64,000 nt of DNA from contig CAMKQH010000015.1 in assembly GCA_946414885.1 (NCBI GenBank), positions 32,881 through 96,880 on the forward strand, in the 5' to 3' direction. Below are positions 22,191 through 49,114 of this stretch, piece after piece (the stretch's first letter is position 1; each line of letters starts with the position of its first letter). Source of the DNA: an uncultured Lachnospiraceae bacterium (GTDB lineage: Bacteria > Bacillota > Clostridia > Lachnospirales > Lachnospiraceae). The notes under the pieces are model-generated. The model saw only the letters and a list, made by a program, of their open reading frames with translations, searched no databases and had not been told where the DNA came from. The translations under genes were made by a program, and so were the position numbers.

Positions 22191-23588
22191 CTATTTCTTC
22201 TCTTTTCTTCTAGCCAGGCAATAGAAAACAATCCCGATAATGATCCAAGCCACCAGACAAATATAGGATTCTTTTCCTAAGGAGCAATGGAAGATGGGGA
22301 TCGGAACGAGCAGCAATATAACAAAAATCAACGCCATTATGCTACCTATCACTCCAGTAATCATAATACCCATATTCTTCTCTTTTCGCGCAAATACGAA
22401 GGCGGCCATCGAAGTATAACCATACCCTATGGCTGCTCCAATGGAGGACATGTCGACAATCCATCCAAGTGCGGTTCGGCCAAAAAACGGAGCAATTAAC
22501 GCAATAATCAAGACGAACAAAATTGCATGGGCCGGAGTTTTATACTTCTCATGCAATTCACCAAACCATTGCGGTAATACACGCTCTTTCGCCATGGAAT
22601 AGAGAAGGCGGCTAGTCGCCATATAGAATCCTATGATTCCTGACAGAATTGCGCCAAGGACTGCCAAGCCAAGGAAAACCAGTCCCGCCGTGCCAAGCAA
22701 TTGATATCCGGCATGAAACGTCGGAAGAGACAATAATCCATTCAGATTCGGAAGATCATTGATATACTCGCTCCAATTCTCATATCCTTCTGGCACAACC
22801 ATAGCGGTTACCGTATTCAAGATCACATAAACAGCTGCACCAAACAGGATAGATAAGACCATGATAAACTTGGTTTTCTTTGCAGAAAACTGAAACTCTT
22901 CTGCTGCCTGCGGAATTGTATCGAATCCGACGAAAGCCCATGGTGCAACAGCGATGACCGCAAGTACGCCGGCCATAGAAGAATTACCTGGATAAAAGCC
23001 CGGTGTTAGGTTCGACAGTTTTACGTTAGGGTTGACAAGTGCTGCCACCGTGATGATCAGTACGCCTCCAACCAAGGCAAAAACTAATCCAGTTTGAAAG
23101 ATACCCGTAAACTTAACACCTCGGATACTTAGATATGCAAACAGTAAAAGTGCTACAATCGCAAGAATGATCTCCCCCAGATAGATATCATAACCGGCAA
23201 CGCTGTAATGGAATCCGACCTGGAATACGTTATTTAGCAGATTCCGTCCAATCAAAGCCAATGCAGTTGCATTCAATGGAACGATTGCCAGATATGACAA
23301 TCCAAGGAACCAAGAACAGACGCATGCATGCTTCTGGCCAAACGCTTTCTGTGTGTACGTGAATTCGCCACCGGCTACTGGATACTTATTAATCATGAAA
23401 TTATAGTTGAATGCTATAATAATCATGATTCCAGCTGCGATCGCCATGGCAATGGCTGTTCCCAAAGGCCCTGCCTTACCCAGGAATGTATTTCCCGGCA
23501 TGACGAACGCGCCCCAACCGATGATACATCCAAGCGCCAGTGACCACACATTTAATGGTGACAGTTTCTTTTCAAGCTTGGTTTCCAT
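22191..23588 (-). CDS. APC-family amino acid permease
   Basis: IIGWGAFV, AGGEFTY, AFVGFDTIPQAAEE, SRLLYSMAK; ~12 TM segments. Confidence 0.9.
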   Translation of the reverse strand: METKLEKKLSPLNVWSLALGCIIGWGAFVMPGNTFLGKAGPLGTAIAMAIAAGIMIIIAFNYNFMINKYPVAGGEFTYTQKAFGQKHACVCSWFLGLSYLAIVPLNATALALIGRNLLNNVFQVGFHYSVAGYDIYLGEIILAIVALLLFAYLSIRGVKFTGIFQTGLVFALVGGVLIITVAALVNPNVKLSNLTPGFYPGNSSMAGVLAVIAVAPWAFVGFDTIPQAAEEFQFSAKKTKFIMVLSILFGAAVYVILNTVTAMVVPEGYENWSEYINDLPNLNGLLSLPTFHAGYQLLGTAGLVFLGLAVLGAILSGIIGFYMATSRLLYSMAKERVLPQWFGELHEKYKTPAHAILFVLIIALIAPFFGRTALGWIVDMSSIGAAIGYGYTSMAAFVFARKEKNMGIMITGVIGSIMALIFVILLLVPIPIFHCSLGKESYICLVAWIIIGIVFYCLARRKEKK

Positions 23589-24559
23589 TAATCATTCCCC
23601 TTCCATAATCTCAACAAGTCATTTTTGATACCTTTGTTTCCGGGATATTGAAGAATATCAAACATCCCCTCAAAGTTTCCTTCAATGAGAACTGCATCAT
23701 TTTCGCGTACAGCCACGTCCCAACCAGTATAGCCGACACCAGGAACAACTCTTGCCGCTTCTTCAACAAGTGCCAAAACTTTATCCCAATTTGGGATCTT
23801 AAAGCCATGAAAAACAGTGCCAGTTGAAGGATGTTTATAATGCTTGTTATGCTCTCTGTCTACTGCATCAGAGACTACGATTCCCTCGTCTTTCTGGACT
23901 TGAACGGCCATCCCGCCGGAAATCACGTTATCAACGCCTCCGTCTCCATTCCCGCAACGCATTCCAACAGCGAGAATATGAACCTTACCATTCCTGAAAA
24001 TTGTCGCTACCCGACAAGTATTCACAGAACCGGGATTAACACTAGCCATCAGATTATGCTGTTGAATTGGTTCTTCAATCAGTGCATCTGCGGCTTTCAG
24101 TCTTTCAAACATAGCGTTCAAATCTTCATCTTTAACAAATTCTTTATGCACCCCTCGACCCCAAGACAAATTCTTCGGTTTGGCAATAAACATCTGATTT
24201 CTAGCGCAGAATCCTTTAAATTCATCGAAAGAACAAGTTGCAGTATCCAGCCATTCTCGGCCAATATAATCCTTAAAGACTTGGAGAAACTCTACCTTGT
24301 TATCAAATATATGCCTTTTACTATAGTCCTGCACGTCTTTGAAAAACTTTCTTTTAAGAGTATGACAAACAAATCTTCTTTTTGCATGACCCTTTTTATC
24401 ATAAAATTCATACTTGAAATACTCCACTGCCGAAGAACCATAGATAACAGCATTGACGGCATAATCACAAAAAGTGGGAATTCTTTTATAATCTTCATGT
24501 TTTTTCAATATGGCGAAATGTTCGTTGAAATCGTTCAATTGATGTTTAATTGGATTCAT
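23588..24559 (-). CDS. sugar-transfer-associated ATP-grasp protein (ATPgrasp_ST/TupA-like)
   Basis: IAKPKNLSWGRGV, IEEPIQQH, NPGSVNTCRV, DNVISGG, GWDVAV, LIEGN. Confidence 0.85.
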   Translation of the reverse strand: MNPIKHQLNDFNEHFAILKKHEDYKRIPTFCDYAVNAVIYGSSAVEYFKYEFYDKKGHAKRRFVCHTLKRKFFKDVQDYSKRHIFDNKVEFLQVFKDYIGREWLDTATCSFDEFKGFCARNQMFIAKPKNLSWGRGVHKEFVKDEDLNAMFERLKAADALIEEPIQQHNLMASVNPGSVNTCRVATIFRNGKVHILAVGMRCGNGDGGVDNVISGGMAVQVQKDEGIVVSDAVDREHNKHYKHPSTGTVFHGFKIPNWDKVLALVEEAARVVPGVGYTGWDVAVRENDAVLIEGNFEGMFDILQYPGNKGIKNDLLRLWKGND

Positions 24560-24667
24560 CTTATTTGCCCCCTAATGAATTTAAACCTTTCTCCCATATT
24601 CTATCATGTCATTTATCTATAAACAAGAGAAACAAAAGGACAGCTTATCTCTGGTTGTCAAAAAACA

Positions 24668-24689
24668 AGGCTCGGCATTAGCCGAGCCT
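24668..24689. terminator. hairpin terminator after the GNAT gene
   Basis: AGGCTCGGC-ATTA-GCCGAGCCT. Confidence 0.6.
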
Positions 24690-25202
24690 GTCATCTTTCT
24701 TATACCTATAAACTATGTCTTCACCATTCGCCACGATCGTCAGTCTTCTGAGCATCCTCGAAACATTCAATTCCGCGTACGCGTCAAAACCGCATTGCTC
24801 TGTGACTTTCCTTGAAGCCAAGTTAGACTTTTCAATCCAGTCATATGCGCACTCGAAATCTACCATTCTGAGAACCAGTCCAATCAGTTCTTTGCCATAT
24901 CCTTTACCTCGTTCAGATTCCTTTGTATAATATGGTCCGAGCACGATGTCGTTTTTTGTAGAGCACTTTAGCCGTCGGCCTCCAGGAGTGACAACACAGT
25001 ATCCAACTAGTTGCCTTTGCTTTTCCAAATAGTAAACAACATATTTCCCCGGCCGCAAAAGTTCCATCAAGAGACGCACTCTTCTAACCAGCCTCATTGG
25101 CTCAAAGTCCATAAAAAGAGGCTTCATAAAAGTCGGCTCATATTTCAAAAGCCTAGTACCATTTCCTTCCCATACCGTTATCACTGGTGTTGTTCCTTCC
25201 AT
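24678..25202 (-). CDS. GNAT-family N-acetyltransferase
   Basis: LGPYYTKESERGKGYGKELI (motif A), SNLASRKVTEQCGF (motif B). Confidence 0.8.
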   Translation of the reverse strand: MEGTTPVITVWEGNGTRLLKYEPTFMKPLFMDFEPMRLVRRVRLLMELLRPGKYVVYYLEKQRQLVGYCVVTPGGRRLKCSTKNDIVLGPYYTKESERGKGYGKELIGLVLRMVDFECAYDWIEKSNLASRKVTEQCGFDAYAELNVSRMLRRLTIVANGEDIVYRYKKDDRLG

Positions 25203-26344
25203 TCTCCAAATCTATGCAAACCGCCAAACAAAAAAGCAAACCAAGGGAGGGGATCATCCCATGAAAAGGTTTGATCAACCGTGTGCTTGCAGCTAAACCA
25301 CGATGGTTTACTCTTAAATCTATCCGGCGATTTTAATAACCATAAAAAGTCTATCTGCGACATTCTTACTCTTATGTCAGTTTTATATTTGAACATCGGA
25401 GTGACAGGCAGATGAAATGCATCCTCAAGCACCTGCAGTGCCTGGTTTACCCCTGCAACAAAGCCTATTTTTGAACAAGCAAGCACTCTTGGGTTAATCT
25501 CAATCACCTTTGCCTTTCCATCTCTCGGGTCAATCATGTAATCAATTCCGTTACAACCCTTGATCCCCATTAATTCAGCAAGTTTCTTGCTTGTTGCGTG
25601 AACATCACTTCGATCTATCGTACCATTCAAAGTTCCCGTGCCGCCTTTCAAGGGATAATATCTGTAGCTTGCATAGGTGAATGCACTTTTCATCACACCG
25701 TTTCGATCAATGAAAACATTATCTGAAGCGTTCAAGCAATTATCAGGCAGACACTCCTGGATAACCATTTCCTTAAGATCTATGCCTCGAGCCGTAACAT
25801 ACTCCCTAAACTCCTGCTCTGAATAGAACTTGTTAAAACCCCTCGCGCCAAATCCTATTCGCGGCTTTATCACTATAGGAAAGCGAATTCCTGATCCAAT
25901 AACGTCCTCCACGGAATTAAGATCAAATAATGTTACTGGACACGGCAAACCATTCTCCATGCACACTCTCATCACTTCCAATTTGTCTTGAGAACGCATA
26001 AATACGTCTTCATCATTAGTAAGTATAATCGCATACTTTGAGAGTTCCTTTTTGTGATGTGCCAAAATCTCTGCAGAAAAATCAACTAACGGGAGCACAA
26101 TGTCATACTTCCCACTTTTAACCAACTTTATGACATTTTTCTCAGTTTCCTTGTATTTGGTATTCTTACACGTTCCCAACACTCTGTGATCCGGAAATCT
26201 TGAAACAAAGCCACAATTCATTTTTGAGTGACAGTAAATCGTCACTTCCAATCCTAGCTTTTTGAAGGCTCTCATATATGGGAGGCATTGTCTCGCATAT
26301 CCTTCCAAAATCAAGATATGTTTTCCTTGAAACCTTGCATCCAT
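25181..26344 (-). CDS. ATP-grasp carboxylate-amine ligase (paralog of 45763-46914)
   Basis: start MDARFQ at 26344; FPIVIKPRIGFGARG, IQECL, VIEINPRV. Confidence 0.85.
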   Translation of the reverse strand: MDARFQGKHILILEGYARQCLPYMRAFKKLGLEVTIYCHSKMNCGFVSRFPDHRVLGTCKNTKYKETEKNVIKLVKSGKYDIVLPLVDFSAEILAHHKKELSKYAIILTNDEDVFMRSQDKLEVMRVCMENGLPCPVTLFDLNSVEDVIGSGIRFPIVIKPRIGFGARGFNKFYSEQEFREYVTARGIDLKEMVIQECLPDNCLNASDNVFIDRNGVMKSAFTYASYRYYPLKGGTGTLNGTIDRSDVHATSKKLAELMGIKGCNGIDYMIDPRDGKAKVIEINPRVLACSKIGFVAGVNQALQVLEDAFHLPVTPMFKYKTDIRVRMSQIDFLWLLKSPDRFKSKPSWFSCKHTVDQTFSWDDPLPWFAFLFGGLHRFGEWKEQHQ

Positions 26345-26387
26345 AACAATATCACACTCCAAACAATATTTTATACAACGAAAAGAC

Positions 26388-26409
26388 GGGGAGCAGGACT
26401 CTGCTCCCC
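26388..26409. terminator. hairpin between the SLC13 and ATP-grasp genes
   Basis: GGGGAGCAG-GACT-CTGCTCCCC. Confidence 0.55.
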
Positions 26410-26423
26410 CTTTCATTTCTTTA

Positions 26424-27689
26424 TTACATCGTCAATCCATAGAACAACGGAACCAGTACAAGTATTGTCACATAGCTTAGTACGTCCATAAAGAATCCAT
26501 ACTTAAAGTAGTCGTTAAACTTATATCCACACGACATGGAAATACCCAGCGTGCTGCTTGCCAAAGGACAGCTTACGCAGACGCCAGACGCAAGCGTGAT
26601 GCCGAGTGCGAACGTATAGGGATTCAATCCAAGCTCAGGCGCAATCGCAAGCACGATAGGCAGTACGATCAAGATTGCCGTAGAGTTCGACATAAACTCG
26701 CTGACTACCAATACCAACAATACAAGGATTGCGAAGAGAATAAACGGACTAAGATTTGTTCCCACAACATTGGCAAACGTATCTGCAATGATCTTTGTTC
26801 CGCCGGAGGCGTCAAGGGCTTTTGCAAGACCAAGGCATCCTGCCAATCGGCCTACAATGTTCCAGTTCACGGAAACAATCGCTTTCTTCTGATCGATGCA
26901 GCCAAAGATAATGCAAAGAACCGCCGCACTTGTACTTGTTACTGCAATGGGAAGCCATTCAGTAATGTAGAATACTACCGTAGCAACAAAGATCAATGCC
27001 ATAATGATCATCTTGGTCTTGCTGTAATTACTCTCATTGGGTTTCAGTTCATACTCTTCCTCCGGGCGATTTCCCCAAATCCGTTCGCCGCGCTTACGGC
27101 CAATAATAAGACAATAGAAAAGTCCCAGCAGAACAATGATTCCGCCAACGGGAGTAAAATCGAACGTCTTAAACATCCTGGCTCCGCTGTCTTCCAAAAG
27201 CCCTTGTGCCGTCATCTGCTGAGTAGATCCAACCAACGTGGAAGCACCACCAATAACGCAACCAAATGCGATCGGCATAATAAGATTCTTCGATTTAATC
27301 TCCTTGTTTGCCAATGCCAGTCCCATAATGATCGGAATAAAGATTGCAAGCACTGCCGAGTTCGTAAGGAATGCTGACATCGCCGCGGAAACAAGATAAG
27401 TACCAATAATGAGTTTTACTTCCGATCCCTTGGAGATTTTTACGATCCAGTTTCCGATCGCGGCAGCCAGACCGGATTCACTGATTGCAGCGCCGATAAC
27501 CATGACTCCAATTGTTAGGATTACGGTGCTGGATGAAAACTGACCGAAAGCCGTCTTAAAGTCACATACCTTAAAAATGACCATCAAAGCACATCCCAAG
27601 ATGGCTGTCGTTGCCATCGGCAGTTTATCCCAAATGAACAGGACAATACAGAAGGCAAAAATAATTAATGAAATGACGTCGATACCCAT
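26424..27689 (-). CDS. SLC13/DASS-family anion (di/tricarboxylate or sulfate) permease
   Basis: SAFLTNSAVLAIFIP, GGASTLVGSTQQ, SEFMSNSTA; multi-TM. Confidence 0.85.
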   Translation of the reverse strand: MGIDVISLIIFAFCIVLFIWDKLPMATTAILGCALMVIFKVCDFKTAFGQFSSSTVILTIGVMVIGAAISESGLAAAIGNWIVKISKGSEVKLIIGTYLVSAAMSAFLTNSAVLAIFIPIIMGLALANKEIKSKNLIMPIAFGCVIGGASTLVGSTQQMTAQGLLEDSGARMFKTFDFTPVGGIIVLLGLFYCLIIGRKRGERIWGNRPEEEYELKPNESNYSKTKMIIMALIFVATVVFYITEWLPIAVTSTSAAVLCIIFGCIDQKKAIVSVNWNIVGRLAGCLGLAKALDASGGTKIIADTFANVVGTNLSPFILFAILVLLVLVVSEFMSNSTAILIVLPIVLAIAPELGLNPYTFALGITLASGVCVSCPLASSTLGISMSCGYKFNDYFKYGFFMDVLSYVTILVLVPLFYGLTM

Positions 27690-27719
27690 GAGTTGCTTCC
27701 TCCCTTTTAAAATTCCTCA

Positions 27720-28655
27720 TTAATGAAAGTCCGAGCAAACTTTCTTCGCAGCTGCAATATAAGCTTTCTCTGCTTCCGAAAGGAATTGCTCTTTTCTATA
27801 AAAAATCCCTATCTTACGGTTGATAACCGCCGTAAGCCGGTTTTTCTCATCCAAAGTCAAATCATTTGGAATTGCGATCGGATAATAAACTATGTCAGGG
27901 CTGTCATCTATCAATTTCCAATAGGATGGAACAATCGCTGCTCCAAATCCGTGATTCACCAGCGCCATCGCAGATTCTTGATACTCGCTTGTATACAGCG
28001 GCGTCACCTTTCTTTTCATCAGAATGTCCAATGCATTCCTTAGCTGCTGTCCCTCGTGAAGCGACACAAACGGAATCTTTAGCTTACTGATGTCCACGGC
28101 CCCGTTCTCCACTTTCTTTTCCACCTTAGAGACATAGTTTTTCGGCACGGCAAACTCAACCTGTTCTTCAAAAAGCTCCTCCATGCCGAACCCTTCCGTG
28201 CTATGATCTAAAAAGGTGATGATCATGTCCAGTTTCCCGTCTGCCAGTTTTTCAGCCAGTTCATCCGTCCTACATTCATCCGTCAACACCCTGATGTCCG
28301 GATGCGAAGAAGCAAATGCTTTAAGAATGAGCGGCATTAACGCAGGCGCGCGCGAAGGCCCCATGCCAACTCTAATCTCCGTATTTCTGCGTGATCTTAT
28401 GTCGTCTAGTCTCTTTTCCAACTGCCGGTTCAACGTGAGGATCTGCTTTCCCGTTTCAACATAGCATTTGCCAGCTTCCGTCAAGCTAATCGGCAATCGT
28501 GAACGATCAAAAAGCTCTATCCCCATCTCTTTCTCGAGTTTTAGGATATATCGCGACAAAGCAGATTGCGCAATTCCCAAGGAATCTGCTGCTTCAGAAA
28601 TGCTATTAGATTCCGCTATTGTAAGAACATATTCAAACGATTTCAATTTATCCAA
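27720..28655 (-). CDS. LysR-family transcriptional regulator
   Basis: SISEAADSLGIAQSALSRYILKLEKEMGIELFDR..LTEAG. Confidence 0.92.
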   Translation of the reverse strand: MDKLKSFEYVLTIAESNSISEAADSLGIAQSALSRYILKLEKEMGIELFDRSRLPISLTEAGKCYVETGKQILTLNRQLEKRLDDIRSRRNTEIRVGMGPSRAPALMPLILKAFASSHPDIRVLTDECRTDELAEKLADGKLDMIITFLDHSTEGFGMEELFEEQVEFAVPKNYVSKVEKKVENGAVDISKLKIPFVSLHEGQQLRNALDILMKRKVTPLYTSEYQESAMALVNHGFGAAIVPSYWKLIDDSPDIVYYPIAIPNDLTLDEKNRLTAVINRKIGIFYRKEQFLSEAEKAYIAAAKKVCSDFH

Positions 28656-28871
28656 TTGTAATACCCCATAACCATATTGTTATATCTTCTTCAAAAATAT
28701 AGTGTTCAGAATTTACTAAACACTATGTTGAATATACCATAGTCAAATATTCTTTGTCAACATGAAAGCATATTTCAATTCGTTAACTAAATATATTACT
28801 CCTCGGAAAGCAACAAGCTAATAATATTCCACGACACTTAGTCTCATTATCAACAATTACCAAAAAAACAA

Positions 28872-29300
28872 TTAGTTTTTTATTTTTTCCTTTAGCTGGG
28901 TCGTACTAATACCCTTTGTATATGGGAAATACTCAATAGCTGCTCCTAATTTAGCAAATTGCTCTTCAGTTCTCTTATAACGCTCAGATCCTTTCCAATC
29001 ATCACCGGAAAACAGTACATCAAAATGAAACTTTTCTAATGCAAGCATCTTATCATTTGTAGTTGCAATATCTACCGTCACGGCATCATCCACCACTTTT
29101 AAGGCTTTTAGTATTCTTACACGTTGATCCTGCGGATAGACTGGTTCCTTATGCTTGATTTCTCTAACATATGTATCATCACATACACCCACGATAAGAA
29201 TGTCACACATTTCCTTACAGCGCTCTAGTAAATTCAAGTGCCCGACATGAAACACATCAAAAACTCCGCATGTATAACCAATATGATACTTCTTATTCAT
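28872..29300 (-). CDS. TagD-like (glycerol/alditol-phosphate) cytidylyltransferase
   Basis: GVFDVFHVGHLNLL (HxGH), GDDWKG, FPYTKGISTT. Confidence 0.9.
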   Translation of the reverse strand: MNKKYHIGYTCGVFDVFHVGHLNLLERCKEMCDILIVGVCDDTYVREIKHKEPVYPQDQRVRILKALKVVDDAVTVDIATTNDKMLALEKFHFDVLFSGDDWKGSERYKRTEEQFAKLGAAIEYFPYTKGISTTQLKEKIKN

Positions 29301-29340: not shown

Positions 29341-30018
29341 TTATTTGTTCCAAGTAATGTTTTCTTTGACTATTTTGGCAGGTTGTCCAGCAATAATCGA
29401 ATTTTTAATGTCAAAACTATGATTTACTACTGACCTTGCTCCGACAATACAATTATCAGCAATTTTGCTACCTTTTAGAATCGTCGTATCACTCGCGATC
29501 CAAACATGATCTCCTATCAAAATTGATCTATGACGATTTATTACATTACCTGCTTCATCCATAACACTATGCCCGTCCCCATCAATTATAGTTACATTCC
29601 ATCCTAGTAATGCGTCTTTCCCAATCGTTATTTCTGAGCCACAACTTATAATTACATTTGAATTGCTTGTAAAACCATCTCCGATAGTTAAAACTCCTTG
29701 CCTAGAAATATTTATTTTGTTTGCCTTTGCAATACGGCATTTACCTAAAAATCTAATTTGTCCTCCTTTTTTTATGCTCCAATAAGTTGTCCCTTCTCCC
29801 ATATTAAACGGATTTTTTTTAATGCCAATGCATACCGTACCCATCTTAAAAGCATTGTTCGAAATAATAACACTTTTTCTATCACCCATCGAATCACATT
29901 TGCAATTCCACCCGATTAGAATTGGTAGCTTTAATCCCTTTATACCAAAATAAAAAACATTAAACCAAATGCTCTTTACTAGATTCACGCTTAATGCACT
30001 TTTTACTCCCTGTAGCAT
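29341..30018 (-). CDS. hexapeptide-repeat O-acyltransferase
   Basis: IIDGDGH, IGDHVWI, IIAGQPAKIVK. Confidence 0.85.
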   Translation of the reverse strand: MLQGVKSALSVNLVKSIWFNVFYFGIKGLKLPILIGWNCKCDSMGDRKSVIISNNAFKMGTVCIGIKKNPFNMGEGTTYWSIKKGGQIRFLGKCRIAKANKINISRQGVLTIGDGFTSNSNVIISCGSEITIGKDALLGWNVTIIDGDGHSVMDEAGNVINRHRSILIGDHVWIASDTTILKGSKIADNCIVGARSVVNHSFDIKNSIIAGQPAKIVKENITWNK

Positions 30019-39399: not shown

Positions 39400-40155
39400 G
39401 ACAAGTTCAAATTTTTATTCCCTCATTAATCCACGGAATATACTTCATATATTCTTTCACTATTGCAGGAATAGCTTTTTTTCATAATGAATATGATCTA
39501 CATGCAAAAATCTCTTATTTTTCTTTTGTGCAAGATCTTCCATGTACAAAGCCATATCTTGATTTGGCATTTGTAACATCTCAGCGACATGTCTTATTCG
39601 CATATTTTTTCTGTTTTTATATTATTAATTTGATCATCTTTTTTTCTTTATATCCGCATATCTGAAGCCATTTCATATACTCTTTTTTTAGCAAACTGTT
39701 CTCAATGCTCTGGATATGTTTATTGGGAATAACGCTGTAGAATGAACCCAATAAAATAATATTATCCGTATATTGCTTTAAATACTCAATAAAGCAACGG
39801 AAATCCTTTTCAAAATCATCATAATCTTTTTCTTCGTATGATTGACCCAATTCATTAATTCTTGAATGATGTCCAATTTGAACATAAATCACATCCCATT
39901 TATAACTAGCAGAACAAAAAAGGCGTTTACTTGTTCGACAAAAAGAATGTCATGCAGGCCTGACGATGTCCCTAACATATCCACAGGACAATTAATCATT
40001 TTAGCAAATTGGCTGCGAACCATCCTTACCGTACTATCGCCAATTAAAAGTATTCTATGTTCGGAACTATCATTAGCTTGATCATACCAAAAATTCGACC
40101 ATTCGGTAGTTTCTCGACCATTTATGCTGTCATGCGTCTTAACAGTATAATTCAT
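39400..40155 (-). pseudogene. SGNH/GDSL hydrolase/acyltransferase broken by several homopolymer frameshifts
   Basis: ILLIGDST (block I) in 39889-40155; continues ..YKWDVIYVQIGHH in another frame; downstream LHVDHIHY (D-x-x-H); breaks at T/A runs 39916-21, 39639-45, ~39605-10 and 39476-82. Confidence 0.7.
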
Positions 40156-40213
40156 TGTCCTCTCCATGTAATGCCACATTAAATGTAATTATATCGTAAC
40201 TAATGAACTGCCA

Positions 40214-41159: not shown

Positions 41160-41984
41160 TCATCTCCTTGCGTTTTTAAGCAATTTTTTTATTGTTTTAA
41201 TTATCCGTTTTGCCAATCGACCAGGTATATACCTAAGCGGCGTTGTTAGGCACATGAAACTAAACCAATAAAAAGGGTTATATGTAGATCGTTTGCTAAA
41301 AATCATTTCCAGCGTGATCCTCTTGCTTTTATTATTATATTTCTTAATCCCGCCTGCTTTAGAAATATCAAAATCGTAGATTAAATCATCAAAAGATTTA
41401 ATTGGGATGCCTTTATTTGCTGCCCTAATAATAAATTCCGGATCCGAGCCATAGTGCGGAAGCAAAACTGGATGAAATCCGCCCACTTTTCTAAATACTT
41501 TAACCGTAAAAAACAACGAATGTGTCGTTCCACTATTACCAATACTGTTAACGTCTCGCATCACTTCTTTGCCCGTTTTGCAATCGTATGCAATGATGCC
41601 TGATGTCATTTTTTTAGTATAAGGATCGTATCCCGTTCCAGAAACAAGACAATTATTTTGCTCTAATCTCTTTAACCCAAGTTTAAAATACTCATCCGGA
41701 ATGGAAATATCGTCATTACACATATATACGGCATCGTCGTCTTTAGCATTCTTCATTAGCCACTTATATGCCTTATGCAATGAGCCACCCCACCATAAAT
41801 GACCATTACCATATATGATAATCGCATCCGGCAATAGATTACGAATCATTTCAGATGTTCCATCTGTTGATCCGTCGTCAACAATAAGAAGTCGCCAGTC
41901 TTTGTAGGTTTGTCTTAATAGGTTCTCAATAAAAGCTTTTGTAATATCTTTTCTATTATGAACTGCCGTTACAACATATAGCAT
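41160..41984 (-). CDS. GT2 glycosyltransferase (rhamnosyltransferase-like)
   Basis: VDDGSTDGT, LWWGG, MCNDD, GGFHPVLLPHYGSD. Confidence 0.88.
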   Translation of the reverse strand: MLYVVTAVHNRKDITKAFIENLLRQTYKDWRLLIVDDGSTDGTSEMIRNLLPDAIIIYGNGHLWWGGSLHKAYKWLMKNAKDDDAVYMCNDDISIPDEYFKLGLKRLEQNNCLVSGTGYDPYTKKMTSGIIAYDCKTGKEVMRDVNSIGNSGTTHSLFFTVKVFRKVGGFHPVLLPHYGSDPEFIIRAANKGIPIKSFDDLIYDFDISKAGGIKKYNNKSKRITLEMIFSKRSTYNPFYWFSFMCLTTPLRYIPGRLAKRIIKTIKKLLKNARR

Positions 41985-42049: not shown

Positions 42050-42607
42050 TTATAATTCGAATTGTATTTTATTATCCTTGAACATAGGATGTTTTTTATC
42101 TTTTTCACTCAAAATCACACTCCCAACATTAGGCCATTCTATTCCAATGTCAGGATCGTTCCACATTATACCGTCTTCATCTTCAGGATGATATATTTCA
42201 TCACATTTATAGGCAAATTCAGCATAATCCGATACAACTATAAAACCATGTGCAAATCCTCTCGGAATCATAAACTGTCGATGATTCTCACCCGAAAGAA
42301 GGATCCCAACCCACTTTCCATATGTTTCACTGTCTTTACGAAGATCTACAGCCACGTCAAAAACTTCTCCACTTAAAACCCTGACTAACTTTGCCTGCGG
42401 GTATTTCTTTTGAAAGTGAAGACCTCGAAGCACTCCTTTTTTACTACTAGACTGATTATCTTGTATAAAATCATATTTTAGGCCCGCTTCAATAAACTCT
42501 TTCTCTTTGTATGTTTCCATAAAATAACCCCTGTTGTCGCCGTAGACCTTAACATCTATTATATATACACCTTTAATATTCGTTTCATTAAACACAAAAT
42601 TTCCCAT
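42050..42607 (-). CDS. rfbC: dTDP-4-dehydrorhamnose 3,5-epimerase (copy 2)
   Basis: DNRGYFMETY, QDNQS, RGLHFQ, PRGFAHGF. Confidence 0.92.
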   Translation of the reverse strand: MGNFVFNETNIKGVYIIDVKVYGDNRGYFMETYKEKEFIEAGLKYDFIQDNQSSSKKGVLRGLHFQKKYPQAKLVRVLSGEVFDVAVDLRKDSETYGKWVGILLSGENHRQFMIPRGFAHGFIVVSDYAEFAYKCDEIYHPEDEDGIMWNDPDIGIEWPNVGSVILSEKDKKHPMFKDNKIQFEL

Positions 42608-42628: not shown

Positions 42629-43843
42629 TCAATTTTTTTGTGAATTGGTCATATTCTCTTCTTTTCTTAAAAAGAAAATCAGCGTAAAAAAAATGGAATA
42701 CTGAAATCCAAAACAAGATAAAATGATCATACTGGCTATTAGAAGAAATAATCTTGATATCTTCGTATTGCCTATGACAAAACAAAACCTAATCACCTTA
42801 ATTGCAAAATACAATCCACACGCGAGACCAAATATAGTAAAATTTGAAAGTACTGTATTTAGATTTGAAACCGCTCTCCTACTTCCTAACGATCTCATGT
42901 ATTCTTCTATCAATGTTGCTCCCTTAGTAACTCCTACTCCAAAAATAGGATGAGCTTTAATAATCATTAAATTAGCAGTAAAACAATTTTTCCTGCCTAA
43001 AAACGACTCATTTTCCTCATAAATTTTACTAAATAGCTTATTATTCAACGATTCACTATATATCATTAACAAAACCATCAAAATAATTAAAGCGCATACT
43101 CCAACCTTCATCCAGGTATGATTTGTTTTATTGTTTTCTCTAAAAACAAGCGCTCCAAGTACCAACGCGAGTGCTAGATATCCTGTGGTAGAAAAAGTCA
43201 ACGCAAGCGAAACTAAGAGCAATACAATGTATTTAACATCTTTCTTCTTTGCTGCAAAAAATTCTAAAGCTAGCGAAAAACATATATAAGAAGCAAATGG
43301 ACCCGGTTCCCAAAAGGGACCTCTCAATTTTGTCATAAAACCAGCAGTGCGCCTTACCGGGACATTACTAATAAAAATTGTATAATAGCTACTTCCTCTT
43401 CTGTTAACAACCGTCGGTAAAAAAGACATCGGCACATTCAATAGATATAATGCAAAAAAAATAAGACCAGCGACAAGTAAAAATTTCATTACTTTTCTAT
43501 AATACAGTGCGAACTCCTCCATTGAGAATTTCTCACTCATATATATAGCAAATGCGAATAAACAAATTTTAAAAAACCATGCACCAGATATATTGTCAAT
43601 GCGAACCATACCGAAAAGCATTATTCCCGCTACGACAGCAAGCTTTACATACTCTCTGCCAAACACTCTTTCTCGTATAAGCAGAACCGCTGTAAAAAGA
43701 ATAAAACTCCATTGAAACGCGGTTTGAAAATATGCTCTACATACCAGCCCGTCGGCAAAGCAAATTATATATAGCATTAGGAGAAACATTACTGCCTCTC
43801 TTTTCTCTATTCTGATTTTATACTTTCCCTCGTTGTTTCCCAC
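42629..43843 (-). CDS. wzy: Wzy-type polysaccharide polymerase
   Basis: ~11 TM segments, GPFWEPG, TFSTTGY, HPIFGVG; located among glycosyltransferase genes. Confidence 0.75.
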   Translation of the reverse strand: MGNNEGKYKIRIEKREAVMFLLMLYIICFADGLVCRAYFQTAFQWSFILFTAVLLIRERVFGREYVKLAVVAGIMLFGMVRIDNISGAWFFKICLFAFAIYMSEKFSMEEFALYYRKVMKFLLVAGLIFFALYLLNVPMSFLPTVVNRRGSSYYTIFISNVPVRRTAGFMTKLRGPFWEPGPFASYICFSLALEFFAAKKKDVKYIVLLLVSLALTFSTTGYLALALVLGALVFRENNKTNHTWMKVGVCALIILMVLLMIYSESLNNKLFSKIYEENESFLGRKNCFTANLMIIKAHPIFGVGVTKGATLIEEYMRSLGSRRAVSNLNTVLSNFTIFGLACGLYFAIKVIRFCFVIGNTKISRLFLLIASMIILSCFGFQYSIFFTLIFFLRKEENMTNSQKN

Positions 43844-43873: not shown

Positions 43874-44995
43874 TCATTTTAAAAAAGAGCAGAATCTCGG
43901 AGCAACAGAATCCCACATATAATTATCTTCAATTTCTTTTCTTGATGCCCTGCCTAACTCATCCCTAGAACATAATGCCTTATTAATTAATTCGACCCAT
44001 TCGCCAATCTCATCCGAATCACACAAATAACCGTTGACACCATCTGTTATAATATCATTCGGTCCTGGGGCAGTATGTGCTACAACTGGAAGACCATAAT
44101 ACATCGCCTCTAAAATCGTCATTCCAAAAATCTCTTTAGGGGAAAGATTAATAATACAATCGCAAGCAACAAAATACTTATACATCTCTGCATAAGGAAC
44201 CCTTCCCACGTAAGATACTTTGTTTTCAATATCTAGTTGTTTAATATAATGAATCAACTGTTCTTCCTGCGAACCTTTTCCGATTATTACAAGTTTGGTC
44301 TTTATGCCTTGATCTAACATGGCCTTCAAAATGTCACATGCCATCAAGGGGTTCTTATACGAAACTAATCTTCCAACAAAAAGCAAAACCGTTTCATCTG
44401 TCTCATATCCCAAACTGTCTCGAATGGATATGTCTAAGTTTTTGTTGGGTTGTAATATGTCGTCATCTAATCCAACATTAATCACTCCCGCACATTTTAC
44501 ATTAAGACTCTCCATCTCGCGCTGCACCTTTTTAGTTTTGGCAATATTGATGGATTTCTCATAAGATCGTCGGTTTCTTGCAAGAATAAGCTTAGTATAC
44601 GCTTGATTTATCCACCTCGGATTATCTGACAGAACATTACCAAAATAATGTATGCAGGGAATATTTCTCTTAGCTGACCATTCTATAACATTTTTCGACC
44701 AAAGCTGACTGTCGGAAAAAAGAATAATCCCTTCTGGATTGTACTTTTCCAAAAGTTTAACATCAAAAATACCATGAATGCCAATGTGTTTATGCGGAAG
44801 ATAATAAACATAGTCATATGTGTCATCCTGTATCACCGTATCGGTTTCTTTATTCAGATACAATACCGTGACCTTATGACCAAGTTTTATCATCGCATTA
44901 GCCAAGCCAACTTCTTGAACGTTATAAGTTCCAATATGTCCAAAATTACTTGTTCCCAATCGCATAATTATCAAATTCACAAAAGGTACCTCCAA
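43874..44995 (-). CDS. GT4 glycosyltransferase
   Basis: LLFVGRL, EIFGMTILEAMYYGLPVV (E-x7-E). Confidence 0.9.
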   Translation of the reverse strand: MEVPFVNLIIMRLGTSNFGHIGTYNVQEVGLANAMIKLGHKVTVLYLNKETDTVIQDDTYDYVYYLPHKHIGIHGIFDVKLLEKYNPEGIILFSDSQLWSKNVIEWSAKRNIPCIHYFGNVLSDNPRWINQAYTKLILARNRRSYEKSINIAKTKKVQREMESLNVKCAGVINVGLDDDILQPNKNLDISIRDSLGYETDETVLLFVGRLVSYKNPLMACDILKAMLDQGIKTKLVIIGKGSQEEQLIHYIKQLDIENKVSYVGRVPYAEMYKYFVACDCIINLSPKEIFGMTILEAMYYGLPVVAHTAPGPNDIITDGVNGYLCDSDEIGEWVELINKALCSRDELGRASRKEIEDNYMWDSVAPRFCSFLK

Positions 44996-44998
44996 CTG

Positions 44999-45766
44999 CT
45001 AAAATTTCCATCCCCATTTTTTATAATACTTTTTCATGCTGTCAGTTAACATCTTTTTAGCCGCTTTAGAATGATGTGCAGCTCTTTTTCCCTCGTGAAT
45101 AATTTGAAACTGCGGCAAATACATAATCTTTCCTTTTTTCCTTATTGAGCGGGAAATATCGAAATCCTCAAAATACATGAAATATCGTTCGTCGAAATAA
45201 CCTATAGCCTCTGCCGCTTTTTTTCTCATTGCCATAAATGAACCTGAGCATATTTCAATTTCAAAGGGTTCTTTCGCGTTCTTAACTTCCTCTTCTCTTT
45301 GATACTCTTTTAACCATTTTTTCGTGAATCCCATTTTAGGAAAAAACCGCGCGAATAAATACCGAAGTTTTGGATCTCTTTTGGGTGGACATTTTAGTTC
45401 TCCATCCATGTCGTGAACTGCAGGAATACACATAACTACTTCCTCATGCTTATCCATGTAATCTACAATATGTTGAATAAGATCTTTCTCAAAGAGAATG
45501 TCTGGATTAATGACGAAATGATATTCTGCATTAGTCACTCGCAACGCCTGATTGTGTCCGCCACCATATCCAGCATTATTCTTGGATTCTATTAACTTAA
45601 CTTTAGGATATTCCTTCTTAATAATTTCCTTTGTCTTATCAACAGAACAGTTATCTACCACGTAAACATCCATGTTGTCAATGCAACTGCTATTTATAAG
45701 AGAATCCAAAACTCCCTTAATCTCATTTTCGTTGTTATAAGTGACAACAGATGCACTGATTTTCAT
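44999..45766 (-). CDS. GT2 glycosyltransferase
   Basis: VVDNCS, NAGYGGGHN, INPD, GYFDERYFMYFED. Confidence 0.9.
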   Translation of the reverse strand: MKISASVVTYNNENEIKGVLDSLINSSCIDNMDVYVVDNCSVDKTKEIIKKEYPKVKLIESKNNAGYGGGHNQALRVTNAEYHFVINPDILFEKDLIQHIVDYMDKHEEVVMCIPAVHDMDGELKCPPKRDPKLRYLFARFFPKMGFTKKWLKEYQREEEVKNAKEPFEIEICSGSFMAMRKKAAEAIGYFDERYFMYFEDFDISRSIRKKGKIMYLPQFQIIHEGKRAAHHSKAAKKMLTDSMKKYYKKWGWKF

Positions 45767-46914
45767 CTTTTTCTCTTCTCCATCTCAGTATTATATTTCT
45801 TAAGACAACTTATCGAGTACGAAAACCAAGGTTTCGGATCAGCCCATGAAAAAACAAAATCATATGTTTTATGGAACTTAAAACCATCTCTAAATCGCTC
45901 TGGCGATTTCAGGAACCACATCGCACTCGCTTGAACGTGACGAACCCGAATCCCCTCTGGATAGTCGATCATGTAAGAAGTAACTGGTTGGTCAAACGCT
46001 CTTTCAAGCGTCTGCCTTACAATGTGAGCACCGCAACATACGCTAACTTTTACGCTGGCGGAAATACGTCCATTGATTTCCATCACGCGCGGAATATGAT
46101 CTTCTTCGCTCTCGATAAAGCAAACGGAAGCATACCCATGCCAATTCATTAACTTAAGCAATTTTTCTGCCTGCGCCGTTACCTCTGGCATCTTGCAGCT
46201 TTCAAACAAGGAATTCGTCCCAATGCCCAATGGATACGGACGAGAAGATTTTGCCAACATGGATGTTTTTGTTTCTCCGTTGTTGTCGATAAAGGTATAA
46301 GAAACGCGATGTATTTCTCCTCGCTTCATAAACTGCTGAATAACGTACTCTTCCACCTTAACCGTTCCGCTATTGATCAGTTCATCCAATTCTTCTTTGG
46401 TTTCTGCCTTATGAATTCCACGCGAACCAGAACCAACGCGGGGCTTAAGAATCAGCGGGAATGATACCTTTTCAAGGAATTCATCCATTGATTCTTCGTC
46501 CAATTTGGTGATTGGACAAGGGATGCCATTCTTCATGCACAGCTCCATCGTAAGTTGCTTATCTTCTGCGTGGATGAATCCTTCCTCGTCCGCACATGCA
46601 AACTTAACATATTGTCTGTAGTTATCCTTATTATCGTACAAAACTTGCGTAGCTGGCTCCAACATAGGAAAAACAACATCATACTTCCCGCTAGGAATTT
46701 CTCTATCAAGAACCTTTTTCAGTTCCTCCATGTCGTATCTGGTTTGTGGTTCCAGGATTTTTGCGTTAACGTACTTTGAAGTATAGCCCACGTCATGTTT
46801 AGACACGCACAGAGTCGTGATTACGCACCCAAGATCATGAAGTTCCTTCAAAACAATGGCACACTGCCTGCCATAACCATCGAGAACTAATACTCTTACA
46901 CCCTTAAAATCCAT
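45763..46914 (-). CDS. ATP-grasp carboxylate-amine ligase
   Basis: FPLILKPRVGSGSRG, IQQF, VMEINGR; shares the LxLdGYxRQC N-terminus and FSWxDPxPWF C-terminus with 25181-26344. Confidence 0.85.
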   Translation of the reverse strand: MDFKGVRVLVLDGYGRQCAIVLKELHDLGCVITTLCVSKHDVGYTSKYVNAKILEPQTRYDMEELKKVLDREIPSGKYDVVFPMLEPATQVLYDNKDNYRQYVKFACADEEGFIHAEDKQLTMELCMKNGIPCPITKLDEESMDEFLEKVSFPLILKPRVGSGSRGIHKAETKEELDELINSGTVKVEEYVIQQFMKRGEIHRVSYTFIDNNGETKTSMLAKSSRPYPLGIGTNSLFESCKMPEVTAQAEKLLKLMNWHGYASVCFIESEEDHIPRVMEINGRISASVKVSVCCGAHIVRQTLERAFDQPVTSYMIDYPEGIRVRHVQASAMWFLKSPERFRDGFKFHKTYDFVFSWADPKPWFSYSISCLKKYNTEMEKRKR

Positions 46915-46923: not shown

Positions 46924-47745
46924 TTATTCACTCTTCAGCGGATGTACCGCTTTATTTATCAAATAAGTTTTTTCATTTTTTCCCAAAATCGTTTTGAGAA
47001 CTCCATACCCGCAATTCACAATCCATCGCGGGAACCACAAAACAATCTTGGCCCGGCCTTCTGCCTTCTCTGCCTTGATGTAATCCGGCGTCCACATCGG
47101 CGAAGGATTCTTTATGATCCGAATGTCATTCCGTGGTTCTTCCTTGCACCAGCCCACCATTGCCGCAACGGCATTTTCAATGCTTAGGATCTCAAAGCTT
47201 GTCCCATTGCCTACTCTGTAAGCAATATTGGGATACTTAAGGTAATATCTCTTCTGAATGTCTCTCTTAATTGTTTCCGTATAAACCGGACTAAAGCGGA
47301 AGATTGTATAGTGCTTCACCTTTTTACACTCCTCTTCCGCCATTGCCTTACTCTTTCCATACTTGCTTACTGGATGGATCGGCGTATTCCCGTTTACCGG
47401 TGCCTTTCCGTCATAAAATCCAAATACGTCCACCGTGCTGATGAACAATAAGGGCTTTTCGCCTGCCACTTCAAACACGTTCTTCGCGCACTCGACGTTG
47501 ACGTGCTGATATCGCTCCCAAGAAAGATCATCTTCTCCAGCAGTGTGAGCCAAGGCCGCCAAATGAATAAATCTGTCAGCTTCCTGAGCAACCTCAGCAA
47601 GTTTGGCTTTGTCTGCCAAATCCACTTGAACAATGCCTTCCCCCGCGATTCTGTCCACGGCAATCACTTGATATCCAGCTTCACTAAGTCCCTTTACTAC
47701 TTGAGAACCTATCATACCCTTTGCGCCAGTGACTAATACTTTCAT
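46924..47745 (-). CDS. NAD-dependent epimerase/dehydratase
   Basis: VTGAKGMIG, HLAALAH, YGKSK. Confidence 0.88.
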   Translation of the reverse strand: MKVLVTGAKGMIGSQVVKGLSEAGYQVIAVDRIAGEGIVQVDLADKAKLAEVAQEADRFIHLAALAHTAGEDDLSWERYQHVNVECAKNVFEVAGEKPLLFISTVDVFGFYDGKAPVNGNTPIHPVSKYGKSKAMAEEECKKVKHYTIFRFSPVYTETIKRDIQKRYYLKYPNIAYRVGNGTSFEILSIENAVAAMVGWCKEEPRNDIRIIKNPSPMWTPDYIKAEKAEGRAKIVLWFPRWIVNCGYGVLKTILGKNEKTYLINKAVHPLKSE

Positions 47746-47747
47746 TC

Positions 47748-48446
47748 TTACACCTCATCAAGGGCACGCCTGTCCCCATTTACGGCATCAATCATTTCTT
47801 TCAAAATCTTTTTCTGCGGTTTTTTAATGATCGTTCCGAGAATACAGAGTACGGTATACCAAATCAACTTAATGTCATAAAACACGGTCTGCTTTCCGAT
47901 ATAGAACCGATCCAGCGCCAGTCTGGTCGGCGCTACCTTTTCCATGTATTCCGCTTCGTCCTCAATCTCATCCCCATAGAGGTAATCATAAAGAGCAGCG
48001 GGGGAGGTGAGTCCGGCTTTTACCTGCGCTACAATTGCGTTTTCGCCGCCTCTCGTGATCGGAATTTGATCAACTGCGGCCGGTCTAGGCCCAACCACGG
48101 CCATGTCTCCCAAAAATACGTTCAAAAGCTGGGGTAACTCGTCAATCTTTGTGGCTCTGATGAACTTGCCAAATGGAAAGATGCGATCTTGATCCGGTCT
48201 TAAACTCTTTTCATTTGCACTTTTATCAACGCGCATGGATCTAAACTTATACATTTTGAAAGTGCGGTTATTTTTCGTAACTCGGTTCGCAAAATAAAAG
48301 ATTGGCCCAGGATCAGAAATCAGAATGCCAATGATCGCGATAATCCAAACGGGAATCAAAACGATGAGTGCAATTCCGGAAGCCCCTATGTCAAATGCCC
48401 GTTTAATAAACCTGTAAAACAAACTCGGCTTCATAATGATCCTCAC
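47748..48446 (-). CDS. priming (initiating) phosphoglycosyl transferase, Bac_transf family
   Basis: KRAFDI, YKFRSM, IDELPQLLNVFLGDMAVVGPRP. Confidence 0.92.
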   Translation of the reverse strand: MRIIMKPSLFYRFIKRAFDIGASGIALIVLIPVWIIAIIGILISDPGPIFYFANRVTKNNRTFKMYKFRSMRVDKSANEKSLRPDQDRIFPFGKFIRATKIDELPQLLNVFLGDMAVVGPRPAAVDQIPITRGGENAIVAQVKAGLTSPAALYDYLYGDEIEDEAEYMEKVAPTRLALDRFYIGKQTVFYDIKLIWYTVLCILGTIIKKPQKKILKEMIDAVNGDRRALDEV

Positions 48447-49114
48447 ATTCTGTAGAACACGGATTCAAATGCTTCTGCGTAGTTACAACCTGCCTGAACG
48501 CCGCGATATGCCGCAATTCCGGTGATTGCCTCTTCCGATCTGGGATGCGGATAAGGACGCATCACGCCTTTATAACATGCCAATGCCTGAATCTTCAAAT
48601 CAACTCCGTCTTTTCCAACTTCCACAAACATGTTGGGAGCGAACCGGTTAGACGAAGAATCAAAGGACCATTCCGTGCTGGAAGGAACTTCCATGTAGAT
48701 AAACTGCTTCAATGCCGGCACGCCGGGTCTCCTCTGGAAGAGACGCGATGCAGCTTGCGCCGCATAGCTCGTCATGACGTGATCATTATTAGTGTCAGAC
48801 GGATGGTGCGTATAAATAACCTCTGCCTTCCAATCCTCGATTGCATGCTCAATAAACTGAACCAATTTTAAATGTGGAACCGTATTCATTTGTATATTGG
48901 GGAAATCTCCGGCGTAAGACTTTTGAATGCCCATGATTTCAAATGCTTTTGCCTGATCGCTTTGCAGCGTATCCGACAAATTAACCCTCGCTCCCGCTTG
49001 ATTCACCAAAGTCGCAACAGCCACGTTGTGTCCTTCGGAAACAAGCTTATGTATTGTTGCTCCCGCTCCCAAAACTTCATCATCCGGGTGTGCTACTACA
49101 AATAAAACATTCAT
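48443..49114 (-). CDS. PIG-L/LmbE-family de-N-acetylase
   Basis: AHPDDEVLGAG, THHPSDTNNDH, YPHPRS. Confidence 0.9.
   Translation of the reverse strand: MNVLFVVAHPDDEVLGAGATIHKLVSEGHNVAVATLVNQAGARVNLSDTLQSDQAKAFEIMGIQKSYAGDFPNIQMNTVPHLKLVQFIEHAIEDWKAEVIYTHHPSDTNNDHVMTSYAAQAASRLFQRRPGVPALKQFIYMEVPSSTEWSFDSSSNRFAPNMFVEVGKDGVDLKIQALACYKGVMRPYPHPRSEEAITGIAAYRGVQAGCNYAEAFESVFYRM

Follow-up and report, generated by a model that had tools for sequence, protein, structure and literature searches.

An ATP-grasp-rich surface-polysaccharide locus with a predicted opine synthase gene in an uncultured Lachnospiraceae bacterium

The window analyzed here, a 64,000-nt stretch of contig CAMKQH010000015.1 (GenBank assembly GCA_946414885.1) from an uncultured gut or rumen Lachnospiraceae bacterium, contains a surface-polysaccharide locus in which a gene resembling ceo, which encodes carboxyethylornithine synthase (CEOS), lies beside a gene for an ATP-grasp ligase. 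An earlier note, made from the sequence alone, had read the region as a polysaccharide locus apparently built for decoration with amino acids or peptides. Genes and domains were called with Pfam scans, with NCBIfam scans run alongside, and coordinates are those of the window. The minus strand carries every gene from 18.6 to 49.6 kb, and the promoter- and terminator-like elements described below are also on that strand. At the center of the locus are five genes separated by intervals of just 15–59 nt: a carboxylate-amine ligase, which we call G2 (38100–39311; ATP-grasp, PF02222, 6.2e-11); a first GNAT acyltransferase (GNAT 1, 37441–38040; PF00583, 9.7e-11); a CapA/MslH-type PGA_cap metalloenzyme (36249–37397; PF09587, 3.1e-47), referred to below as CapA-like; the ligase G3 (35088–36233; ATPgrasp_ST, PF14397, 1.1e-36, 126.9 bits); and the CEOS-like dehydrogenase (34082–35059), which follows G3 after a 28-nt gap.

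The CEOS-like gene encodes a 325-aa protein of the alanine dehydrogenase (AlaDH) fold with both AlaDh_PNT domains (PF05222 and PF01262). Its open reading frame extends to 35104, and we take 35059 to be the true start because an AGGAG ribosome-binding site precedes it and the close homologues are all 321–326 aa long. As a CEOS reference, we used the PGAP-named homologue on Lactococcus cremoris plasmid pLC71A. By tblastn, the protein matched Lactococcus CEOS at 32% identity (7e-35) versus ~27% (~1e-22) for ald genes, and a profile of its clade scored 235.8 in hhalign against Lactococcus CEOS versus 207.9 against AlaDH. Against the alanine dehydrogenase model TIGR00518, it scored 99.8 bits, far below the cut-off of 391.85; the nearest solved structures are alanine dehydrogenases (2eez, 2.6e-26). 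In a multiple alignment, the CEOS-like clade and CEOS have in common a GW-H motif and two deletions relative to AlaDH, one of a ~13-residue loop and one of ~37 residues past Rossmann β2. Both also carry Y-[G/Y]-R-K (Y-G-R-K in the window protein) in place of the acidic residue (Asp) with which AlaDH selects NADH; at that position of a Rossmann fold, Y-x-R-K points to NADPH as the cofactor, which has been reported for CEOS. Invariant residues include R17/R18, K74, H95, and D234, the Arg, Lys, His, and Asp of the pyruvate and catalytic site. In a quick tree, the CEOS-like clade was well supported and stood apart from CEOS, from an E. coli/Streptomyces type and from AlaDH; the Lactococcus branch of this tree is very long, and we drew on the well-supported window clade alone. 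Because the clade is separate and retains an AlaDH-like C-terminal segment that CEOS lacks, we call the protein CEOS-like, not CEOS. We predict from these sequence features that it is an NADPH-dependent N-(1-carboxyalkyl) amino-acid (opine) synthase. A large protein collection held 1776 homologues, the best 120 of which were 73–100% identical, and the gene was present in just three of 301 sampled Lachnospiraceae genomes, a patchy distribution.

Five ATP-grasp ligases are encoded in the region. G3 and G5 (23588–24559; PF14397, 1.4e-46, 159.4 bits) match ATPgrasp_ST over nearly their full length at scores well above the 31.4-bit cut-off, and no other gene of the 3.8-Mb genome passes the Pfam threshold for this family. 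Likewise, the carboxylate-amine ligases G1 (45763–46914; ATP-grasp_3, PF02655, 1.2e-10) and G4 (25181–26416; ATP-grasp_3) are the only genes of their type in the genome. The clustering of these ligases is not due to chance, since each pair comprises the sole genes of its type genome-wide. G1 and G4 are full-length paralogues (33% identity), and 26343 is the most likely true start of G4 because the part of G4 that aligns with G1 starts at residue 29; G3 and G5 are also paralogous (27% identity). A duplicated three-gene cassette of ATP-grasp ligase, GNAT, and ATPgrasp_ST was considered and rejected, as BLAST found G2 and G4, and likewise the two GNATs, to be unrelated. Atlas clusters that match G1 bear the name carboxylate-amine ligase, and one “D-aspartate ligase family” cluster occurs among the atlas neighbors of G2, which we regard as a lead only. 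Sampling of further genomes turned up no G4-type gene in 300 other Lachnospiraceae and such genes in three of 400 other Bacillota. The TupA-like family (PF14305) had no match among the window proteins or anywhere in the genome. None of the five ligases, the two GNATs, or the CEOS-like protein is truncated, and their motifs are intact.

We carried out a neighborhood census of 76 related loci (one metagenome scan yielded 80 loci), predicting open reading frames, clustering the proteins, and naming the commonest neighbor clusters with Pfam. The commonest neighbors of CEOS-like genes were TupA-like ATP-grasp proteins (26 loci) and ATPgrasp_ST proteins (24 loci), followed by UDP-sugar dehydrogenase, Mur-ligase-like, glycosyltransferase family 2 (GT2) and family 4 (GT4), Wzx, Wzy, TagF-like, and ABC-2 proteins. 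Where at least 1 kb was available on each side, an ATPgrasp_ST or TupA-like gene was directly adjacent in 31 of 52 loci, and an adjacent ligase was present in 16 of 31 lineages after dereplication at 90% identity. The adjacent ligase genes were always on the strand of the CEOS-like gene (50/50), at a median gap of 14.5 nt, and the association is scattered over the tree of the CEOS-like clade.

In the closest of these loci (L009), whose CEOS-like protein is 75% identical to ours, five ATP-grasp genes surround the CEOS-like gene within a Wzx/Wzy operon. The order there is Bac_transf, a gene of unknown type, ATP-grasp, epimerase, ATPgrasp_ST, acyltransferase, ATPgrasp_ST, CEOS-like, two further ATPgrasp_ST genes, Wzy, and Wzx. 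The ATPgrasp_ST directly upstream of the CEOS-like gene is a G3 orthologue at 51% identity, and the 324-aa ligase directly downstream of it is the best match to G5 in this locus. A more divergent version of the pair is carried by an E. coli plasmid in a Wzx/Wzy locus of capsule type flanked by IS91 (L088; NZ_AP027746, 5828–16411), where the order is WecA, ATP-grasp, CEOS-like, flippase, glycosyltransferases, epimerase, and nucleotide-sugar dehydrogenase; the ATP-grasp gene was identified from the annotation of a second, identical record. An identical pair occurs on a plasmid of a bullfrog isolate, and three chromosomes carry copies at 71% identity within a decayed tRNA-Phe island. CEOS-like proteins of this enterobacterial type branch separately from the window protein, with which they share only 32% identity.

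Two further arrangements were seen around CEOS-like genes. In a near-identical group of 13 loci, mostly human-gut metagenome contigs (L012, L013, L016, L021, L025, L028, L031, L035, and others), the CEOS-like gene marks the edge of a TagF-like/ABC-2 locus of teichoic-acid type. The gene ahead of it encodes a 622-aa ATPgrasp_ST protein, and no Pfam family was matched by the first ~390 residues of this protein. Beside the CEOS-like gene in two other loci (L024, 7084–9378, and L053, 3942–5936) are two unusual proteins, a 764-aa ATPgrasp_ST fusion and a Mur-ligase-like protein with a BspA-type leucine-rich repeat.

The third member of the central cluster, the CapA-like protein, belongs to a family with 1017 homologues in the protein collection and with invariant residues D9, N87, H88, D91, and H215. 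In a profile alignment, N87, H88, D91, and H215 pair with N87, H88, D91, and H295 of MslH, the lasso-peptide C-terminal epimerase (PMC10406935), and D9 matches MslH D11 in position only. The alignment consists of two short stretches outside which the MslH ligands His259 and His261 fall, and the paired residues are also common to metallophosphoesterase-fold proteins in general. The protein starts directly at the catalytic GD motif with no N-terminal membrane anchor, and neither a CapB (Mur-ligase type) nor a CapC partner is present among the genes of the locus; in these respects, the protein does not match CapA/PgsA of poly-γ-glutamate synthesis. By analogy with MslH, epimerization to a D-residue would be a reasonable role, because an amino acid bound through its α-amine leaves a free α-carboxylate, like the C terminus of a peptide.

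The remainder of the locus is that of a Wzx/Wzy-type polysaccharide. Transcription runs from a VOC/glyoxalase-family gene of uncertain membership at the head of the operon (49134–49565; PF00903, 8.3e-08) through a PIG-L family de-N-acetylase (48443–49114; PF02585, 7e-21, with a weak BshB1-like match), a small polyprenyl-phosphate sugar-phosphate transferase of the Bac_transf family, the priming enzyme (47748–48446; PF02397, 2.4e-48, with a TIGR03025-type C-terminal domain), and a 273-aa epimerase/reductase-type member of the short-chain dehydrogenase/reductase (SDR) family (46924–47745; PF01370, 2.4e-24, with all NCBIfam equivalogs below cut-off), to G1. A backbone block follows, with a GT2 (44999–45766), a GT4 (43874–44995), a Wzy polymerase (42629–43843; Wzy_C, 42.4 bits, above cut-off), RmlC (42050–42607), and a second GT2 (41160–41984), and then a LicD-family phospho-alcohol transferase (40214–41155; PF04991, 2.4e-47) and a broken gene. 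Beyond the central cluster of G2, GNAT 1, CapA-like, G3, and CEOS-like genes come a 539-aa Wzx-type flippase (32214–33833), an SDR–cytidylyltransferase fusion (31022–32185), a second LicD (30089–31006), a hexapeptide O-acetyltransferase (29341–30018, with a WbbJ-like NCBIfam match below cut-off), and a TagD-like cytidylyltransferase (28872–29300, with a g3p_cytidyltrns- match below cut-off). The Wzx assignment (PF01943, 6.9e-06) scored 26.1 bits, slightly below the 28.2 cut-off, and is backed by position, as Wzx homologues come straight after the CEOS-like gene in three related loci (L054, L057, and L072). The genes from 49.6 to 28.9 kb are mostly tightly packed, with breaks at a degraded region (39.3–40.2 kb) and at a 248-nt gap before Wzx. 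A search of the open reading frames from 18.6 to 64 kb found no chain-length regulator, tyrosine kinase, or LCP ligase; such genes could lie elsewhere in the genome.

Every gene named in the earlier note lies on the minus strand within 22191–49114 where it had been placed. Its five ATP-grasp ligases, two GNATs, CapA-like protein, ceo-like gene, and two permeases were all recovered, as were its three glycosyltransferases and the juxtaposition of PIG-L and priming transferase. Its interpretation stands in part: the locus is indeed an amide-ligase-rich glycan locus of Wzx/Wzy type, and linkage of ceo-like and ligase genes recurs in glycan loci elsewhere. The earlier note did not list the two LicD genes, the two cytidylyltransferases, Wzx, Wzy, RmlC, the LysR regulator, the O-acetyltransferase, or the two genes that are damaged. 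The two LicD proteins (162.3 and 121.4 bits) and two CTP_transf_like domains make up a system for CDP-alcohols, and phospho-alcohol and acetyl decorations are at least as prominent in this locus as amino-acid decoration.

Three genes from the first part of the operon recur together elsewhere. In a genome of another Bacillota family (G609), homologues of PIG-L (26%), Bac_transf (43%), and a G1-like ligase (36%) occur in the same order as in the window. This conserved order points to an initiation module: the trio probably strips the N-acetyl group from the first amino sugar and then re-acylates the freed amine.

Downstream of the TagD-like gene, the organization changes. A 217-nt gap holds the best promoter-like site of the region (28731–28760; TTGACA-18-TATATT, with TG) and precedes the LysR regulator (27720–28655) and a DASS/CitMHS anion symporter (26424–27689; TIGR00785 below cut-off). 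After the symporter lies a GC-rich hairpin with a 9-bp stem that is terminator-like on both strands (26388–26409), followed by G4 and a second GNAT (24678–25202). The loop of a strong terminator (24668–24689; 9-bp stem, GC-rich, terminator-like on both strands) contains the GNAT 2 stop codon, so the two hairpins bracket the G4/GNAT pair. Past this terminator, a promoter-like site and a ribosome-binding site precede G5, which overlaps the start of an APC amino-acid permease (AA_permease_2; 22191–23588; PF13520, 1.2e-36) by one base. No substrate-specific NCBIfam equivalog was found for the permease, the symporter, the SDR protein, or PIG-L. Sugar-nucleotide supply genes complete the series, namely a second RmlC (21283–21906), ManC (19592–20935), and phosphomannose isomerase (PMI; 18603–19586). 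Given its own promoter and terminators, the 22–28.7 kb part is a string of separate units outside the ceo operon. The reading of the earlier note is qualified here: ceo does lie in a glycan locus, but the stretch from 22191 to 28655 is separately promoted and terminated and is not part of its operon.

An intrinsic-terminator-like hairpin (49815–49850; 16-bp stem with 10 GC pairs and a T-run) that closes a toxin–antitoxin islet marks the upstream limit of the locus. No glycan genes were found upstream of this islet, where we saw a glycoside hydrolase family 2 gene, PfkB, and a LytTR two-component system. GC content falls to 0.32–0.38 in the central 28–46 kb versus 0.41–0.46 in the flanks; serotype-specific cores of glycan loci are likewise AT-rich. 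When the 18–30 and 44–60 kb parts were compared with a genome of the same genus (G213), only PMI, ManC, and the second RmlC were common to both at the DNA level. Together with the priming transferase, Wzy, and Wzx, the gene content supports reading the region as a Wzx/Wzy-type locus for a surface heteropolysaccharide, variable between strains and unusually rich in amide ligases. Directly downstream of the locus is a gene for a 2014-aa protein (12389–18433) with Listeria–Bacteroides repeats, Big_2, a hyaluronate-lyase N-terminal β domain, and a C-terminal CAP domain, which is likely to be a large surface protein. Elsewhere on the contig, ~10.5 kb before the start of the window, a 514-aa open frame carries a match to the UDP-glucose/GDP-mannose dehydrogenase N-terminal family (genome G000, contig C15, 22308–22835). 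This match is the only one above cut-off in the genome, and the gene, which shares the contig with the locus and lies ~29 kb past its end, is the nearest uronic-acid candidate.

From the gene content, families, gene linkage, and catalytic residues observed, we infer possible substrates, an order of steps, and a final structure. The priming transferase and the three glycosyltransferases would build a short repeat unit, which would then be heavily decorated by three routes. In the first, the two cytidylyltransferases would make CDP-alcohols and the two LicD enzymes would transfer phospho-alcohol groups; in the second, the hexapeptide O-acetyltransferase would add acetyl groups. The third would attach amide-linked amino acids, with the cotranscribed pair of G3 and the CEOS-like dehydrogenase at its core. 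By reductive condensation with NADPH, the CEOS-like enzyme would couple pyruvate, or another 2-oxo acid, to an amino group of a free amino acid, with lysine and ornithine as the likeliest candidates, and so form an N-(1-carboxyalkyl) amino acid. G3 would activate a carboxylate with ATP, most likely the C6 of a uronic acid on the precedent of Cj1438C (discussed below), and link the N-(1-carboxyalkyl) amino acid to the glycan as an amide; alternatively, the carboxylate of the amino acid may be joined to an amine freed by PIG-L. G2, the GNATs, and the CapA/MslH-type enzyme would add, N-acylate, and possibly epimerize further residues, and the downstream LysR/symporter, G4/GNAT, and G5/permease units probably supply substrates or add residues. 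This overall model of a decorated heteropolysaccharide, with an opine amide route through the CEOS-like enzyme and G3, is the account that we favor, by a little more than an even chance.

Several observations weigh against that account, and they bear first on the enzyme itself. The window protein is only 32–34% identical to Lactococcus CEOS, its margin over AlaDH is modest, and the AlaDH-like C-terminal segment sets its clade apart from CEOS; in the literature, we found no assayed member of either ATPgrasp_ST or the CEOS-like clade. It could accordingly be an ordinary alanine (or other amino-acid) dehydrogenase, with the ligases attaching the alanine that it makes and no opine being formed. 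The AlaDH structures among its best matches, its AlaDH catalytic residues, the small hhalign margin, and the retained segment all suit such an enzyme, and alanine amides are common in polysaccharides (PMC10609480). We nevertheless think it quite improbable, as the TIGR00518 score is so far below cut-off, both deletions, the GW-H motif, and the NADPH-type Y-G-R-K are held in common with CEOS, and a glycan locus would have little need of a dedicated source of a common amino acid. The order of steps could also be reversed, such that a ligase attaches an amino acid to the glycan or to a lipid-linked precursor and the CEOS-like enzyme then carboxyethylates its amine, or that of an amino sugar freed by PIG-L. 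Tight coupling of ligase and dehydrogenase genes suits either order, PIG-L is in the same operon, and alanopine sits on an amino sugar in Providencia alcalifaciens O35 (PMC10609480). A different picture comes from the roughly half of lineages in which the CEOS-like gene stands alone beside MarR, DnaK, TrkH, and similar genes, itself a difficulty for a dedicated decoration role. Solitary genes in housekeeping surroundings with no glycan genes nearby, including those of clade members at ~58% identity, suggest that the substrates are free, common metabolites; moreover, work by Thompson in 1989 and by Donkersloot and Thompson in 1995 reportedly found Lactococcus CEOS to act on free ornithine and lysine. 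We rate carboxyethylation on the polymer as no more probable than the alanine dehydrogenase.

The other difficulties concern the locus as a whole: it has no uronic-acid gene, no counterparts of G1, G2, G4, or either GNAT were found in the related CEOS-like loci, the downstream units are transcribed separately, and two genes are damaged. Two unrelated systems may simply be neighbors, with a glycan locus at 28.9–49.6 kb and, at 22.2–28.7 kb, an independent, regulated pathway for the import of an amino acid and an organic acid and the synthesis of a soluble, N-acylated, peptide-like metabolite. The strong promoter before LysR, the hairpin after the symporter, and the terminator after GNAT 2 with its new promoter-like site and ribosome-binding site would all suit this division, as would the two transporters and the regulator in the downstream part, its GC content above that of the central cassette, and the scarcity of G4-type genes in the genomes sampled. 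Ties between the two parts make it somewhat unlikely all the same: G4 and G1 are paralogous over their full length and G1 is itself tied to the priming module, the best match of G5 in L009 adjoins the CEOS-like gene inside a Wzx/Wzy operon, and both ligase types occur nowhere else in the genome. Finally, the decoration cassette may be decaying in this strain, so that the predicted amino-acid groups are now partly or wholly missing from its polymer. In the CapA-like gene, a deletion near 36355 (~14 nt when judged by eye against homologue C termini; region 36284–36406) shifts the frame and removes the conserved C terminus: homologues end ...YKDVTVLRMLEHVRGEEDVEVM..., the window tail sits in another frame, and the conserved C-terminal LEHVRGEEDVEVM motif is readable in a frame different from that of the gene, so the last ~33 residues are out of frame. 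In addition, an SGNH/GDSL-like gene (39460–40179) is broken by at least two frameshifts into open reading frames of 96, 91, and 47 aa, which across frames carry LLIGDS, GxS, GHHSRIN, and DHIH blocks (SGNH GDS, GxS, GxN-like, and DxxH); the SGNH reading comes from these motifs in the sequence, as Pfam gave no significant match to the fragments. With these two lesions, part of the pathway may be inactive. Loss of the decoration is nonetheless unlikely in our view, less so than the two readings of the dehydrogenase considered above, as G1–G5, both GNATs, and the CEOS-like gene are intact, the catalytic domain of the CapA-like protein is also intact, and both lesions could be assembly or sequencing errors in a draft of 51 contigs.

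A broader version of the favored opine amide route is more tentative, and we regard it as possible rather than probable. Under this proposal, an NADPH-dependent opine synthase of a new AlaDH-fold clade and an ATPgrasp_ST/TupA amidoligase would form a portable two-gene cassette, present in many gut and rumen Firmicutes and some Enterobacteriaceae, that puts N-(1-carboxyalkyl) amino acids on glycopolymers; here, with up to four more ligases, GNATs, and a CapA/MslH-type epimerase, it would assemble a short peptide-like side chain that is N-acylated and partly D-configured. If true, the cassette would supply the missing genes for carboxyethyl-lysine and alanopine decorations, as well as a new class of peptidylated polysaccharide in commensals, and the conserved pair of ligase and opine synthase would let such decorations be predicted from uncultured gut and rumen genomes. 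N-(1-carboxyethyl) amino acids on polysaccharides are serotype-defining epitopes whose chemistry has been known for decades, and charged amino-acid side chains alter the encounters of surface glycans with phages, antibodies, and host lectins.

The closest known enzyme is the Lactococcus lactis CEOS (ceo, EC 1.5.1.24), which like the window protein has the AlaDh_PNT N- and C-terminal domains (310 versus 325 aa), the Arg, Lys, His, and Asp of the pyruvate site, the two deletions, GW-H, and Y-x-R-K. Their settings differ: the Lactococcus gene is solitary and next to stress genes, and the window gene forms part of a glycan operon, where its neighbor encodes an ATP-grasp ligase. In the literature searched, which did not include Iyer et al. 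2009 itself, we found no published link between ceo-like genes and polysaccharide loci. On the chemical side, the O-antigen of Providencia rustigianii O14 contains N-ε-(1-carboxyethyl)-N-α-(D-galacturonoyl)-L-lysine and that of P. alcalifaciens O35 carries alanopine on Qui4N (PMC10609480). Both are products expected of an opine synthase acting with an amide ligase, although these are Gram-negative O-antigens. We found no gene assignment for either opine substituent in the literature searched, and a paper on Proteus O-antigen genetics made no amino-acid gene assignment. The E. coli plasmid locus, with its ATP-grasp and CEOS-like genes, epimerase, and nucleotide-sugar dehydrogenase, would fit the galacturonic acid–lysine chemistry. 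MslH (PDB 8GQ9; PMC10406935), CapA/PgsA, and the window CapA-like protein are all PGA_cap proteins; the last differs in having neither CapB and CapC nor a membrane anchor and in its 3′ frameshift, and any epimerase activity on its part is a suggestion from this kinship.

For the ligases, the nearest precedent is the C-terminal domain of Cj1438 from the Campylobacter jejuni HS:2 capsule, a TupA-like ATP-grasp enzyme that joins an amine to the C6 carboxylate of glucuronic acid in amide linkage (PMC11800379). It too is an ATP-grasp enzyme of a capsule locus, and TupA-like proteins are the commonest CEOS-like neighbors in related loci. In contrast, G3 and G5 belong to ATPgrasp_ST (PF14397) and not to TupA (PF14305), are free-standing with no GT2 fusion, and would use an amino acid, not serinol or ethanolamine phosphate, as the amine. 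Enzymes of the ATPgrasp_ST and TupA families were predicted to ligate peptides or amino acids by Iyer et al. 2009, as cited in PMC13419641, and going by that citation, the families resemble the window ligases in being ATP-grasp enzymes of surface-polysaccharide loci with a predicted role in amino-acid decoration. Amino-acid addition is already predicted for ATP-grasp ligases of glycan loci, with one proven, and the products proposed here are known chemistry; to these known systems, the present locus contributes a conserved initiation trio and an unusually large set of ligases.

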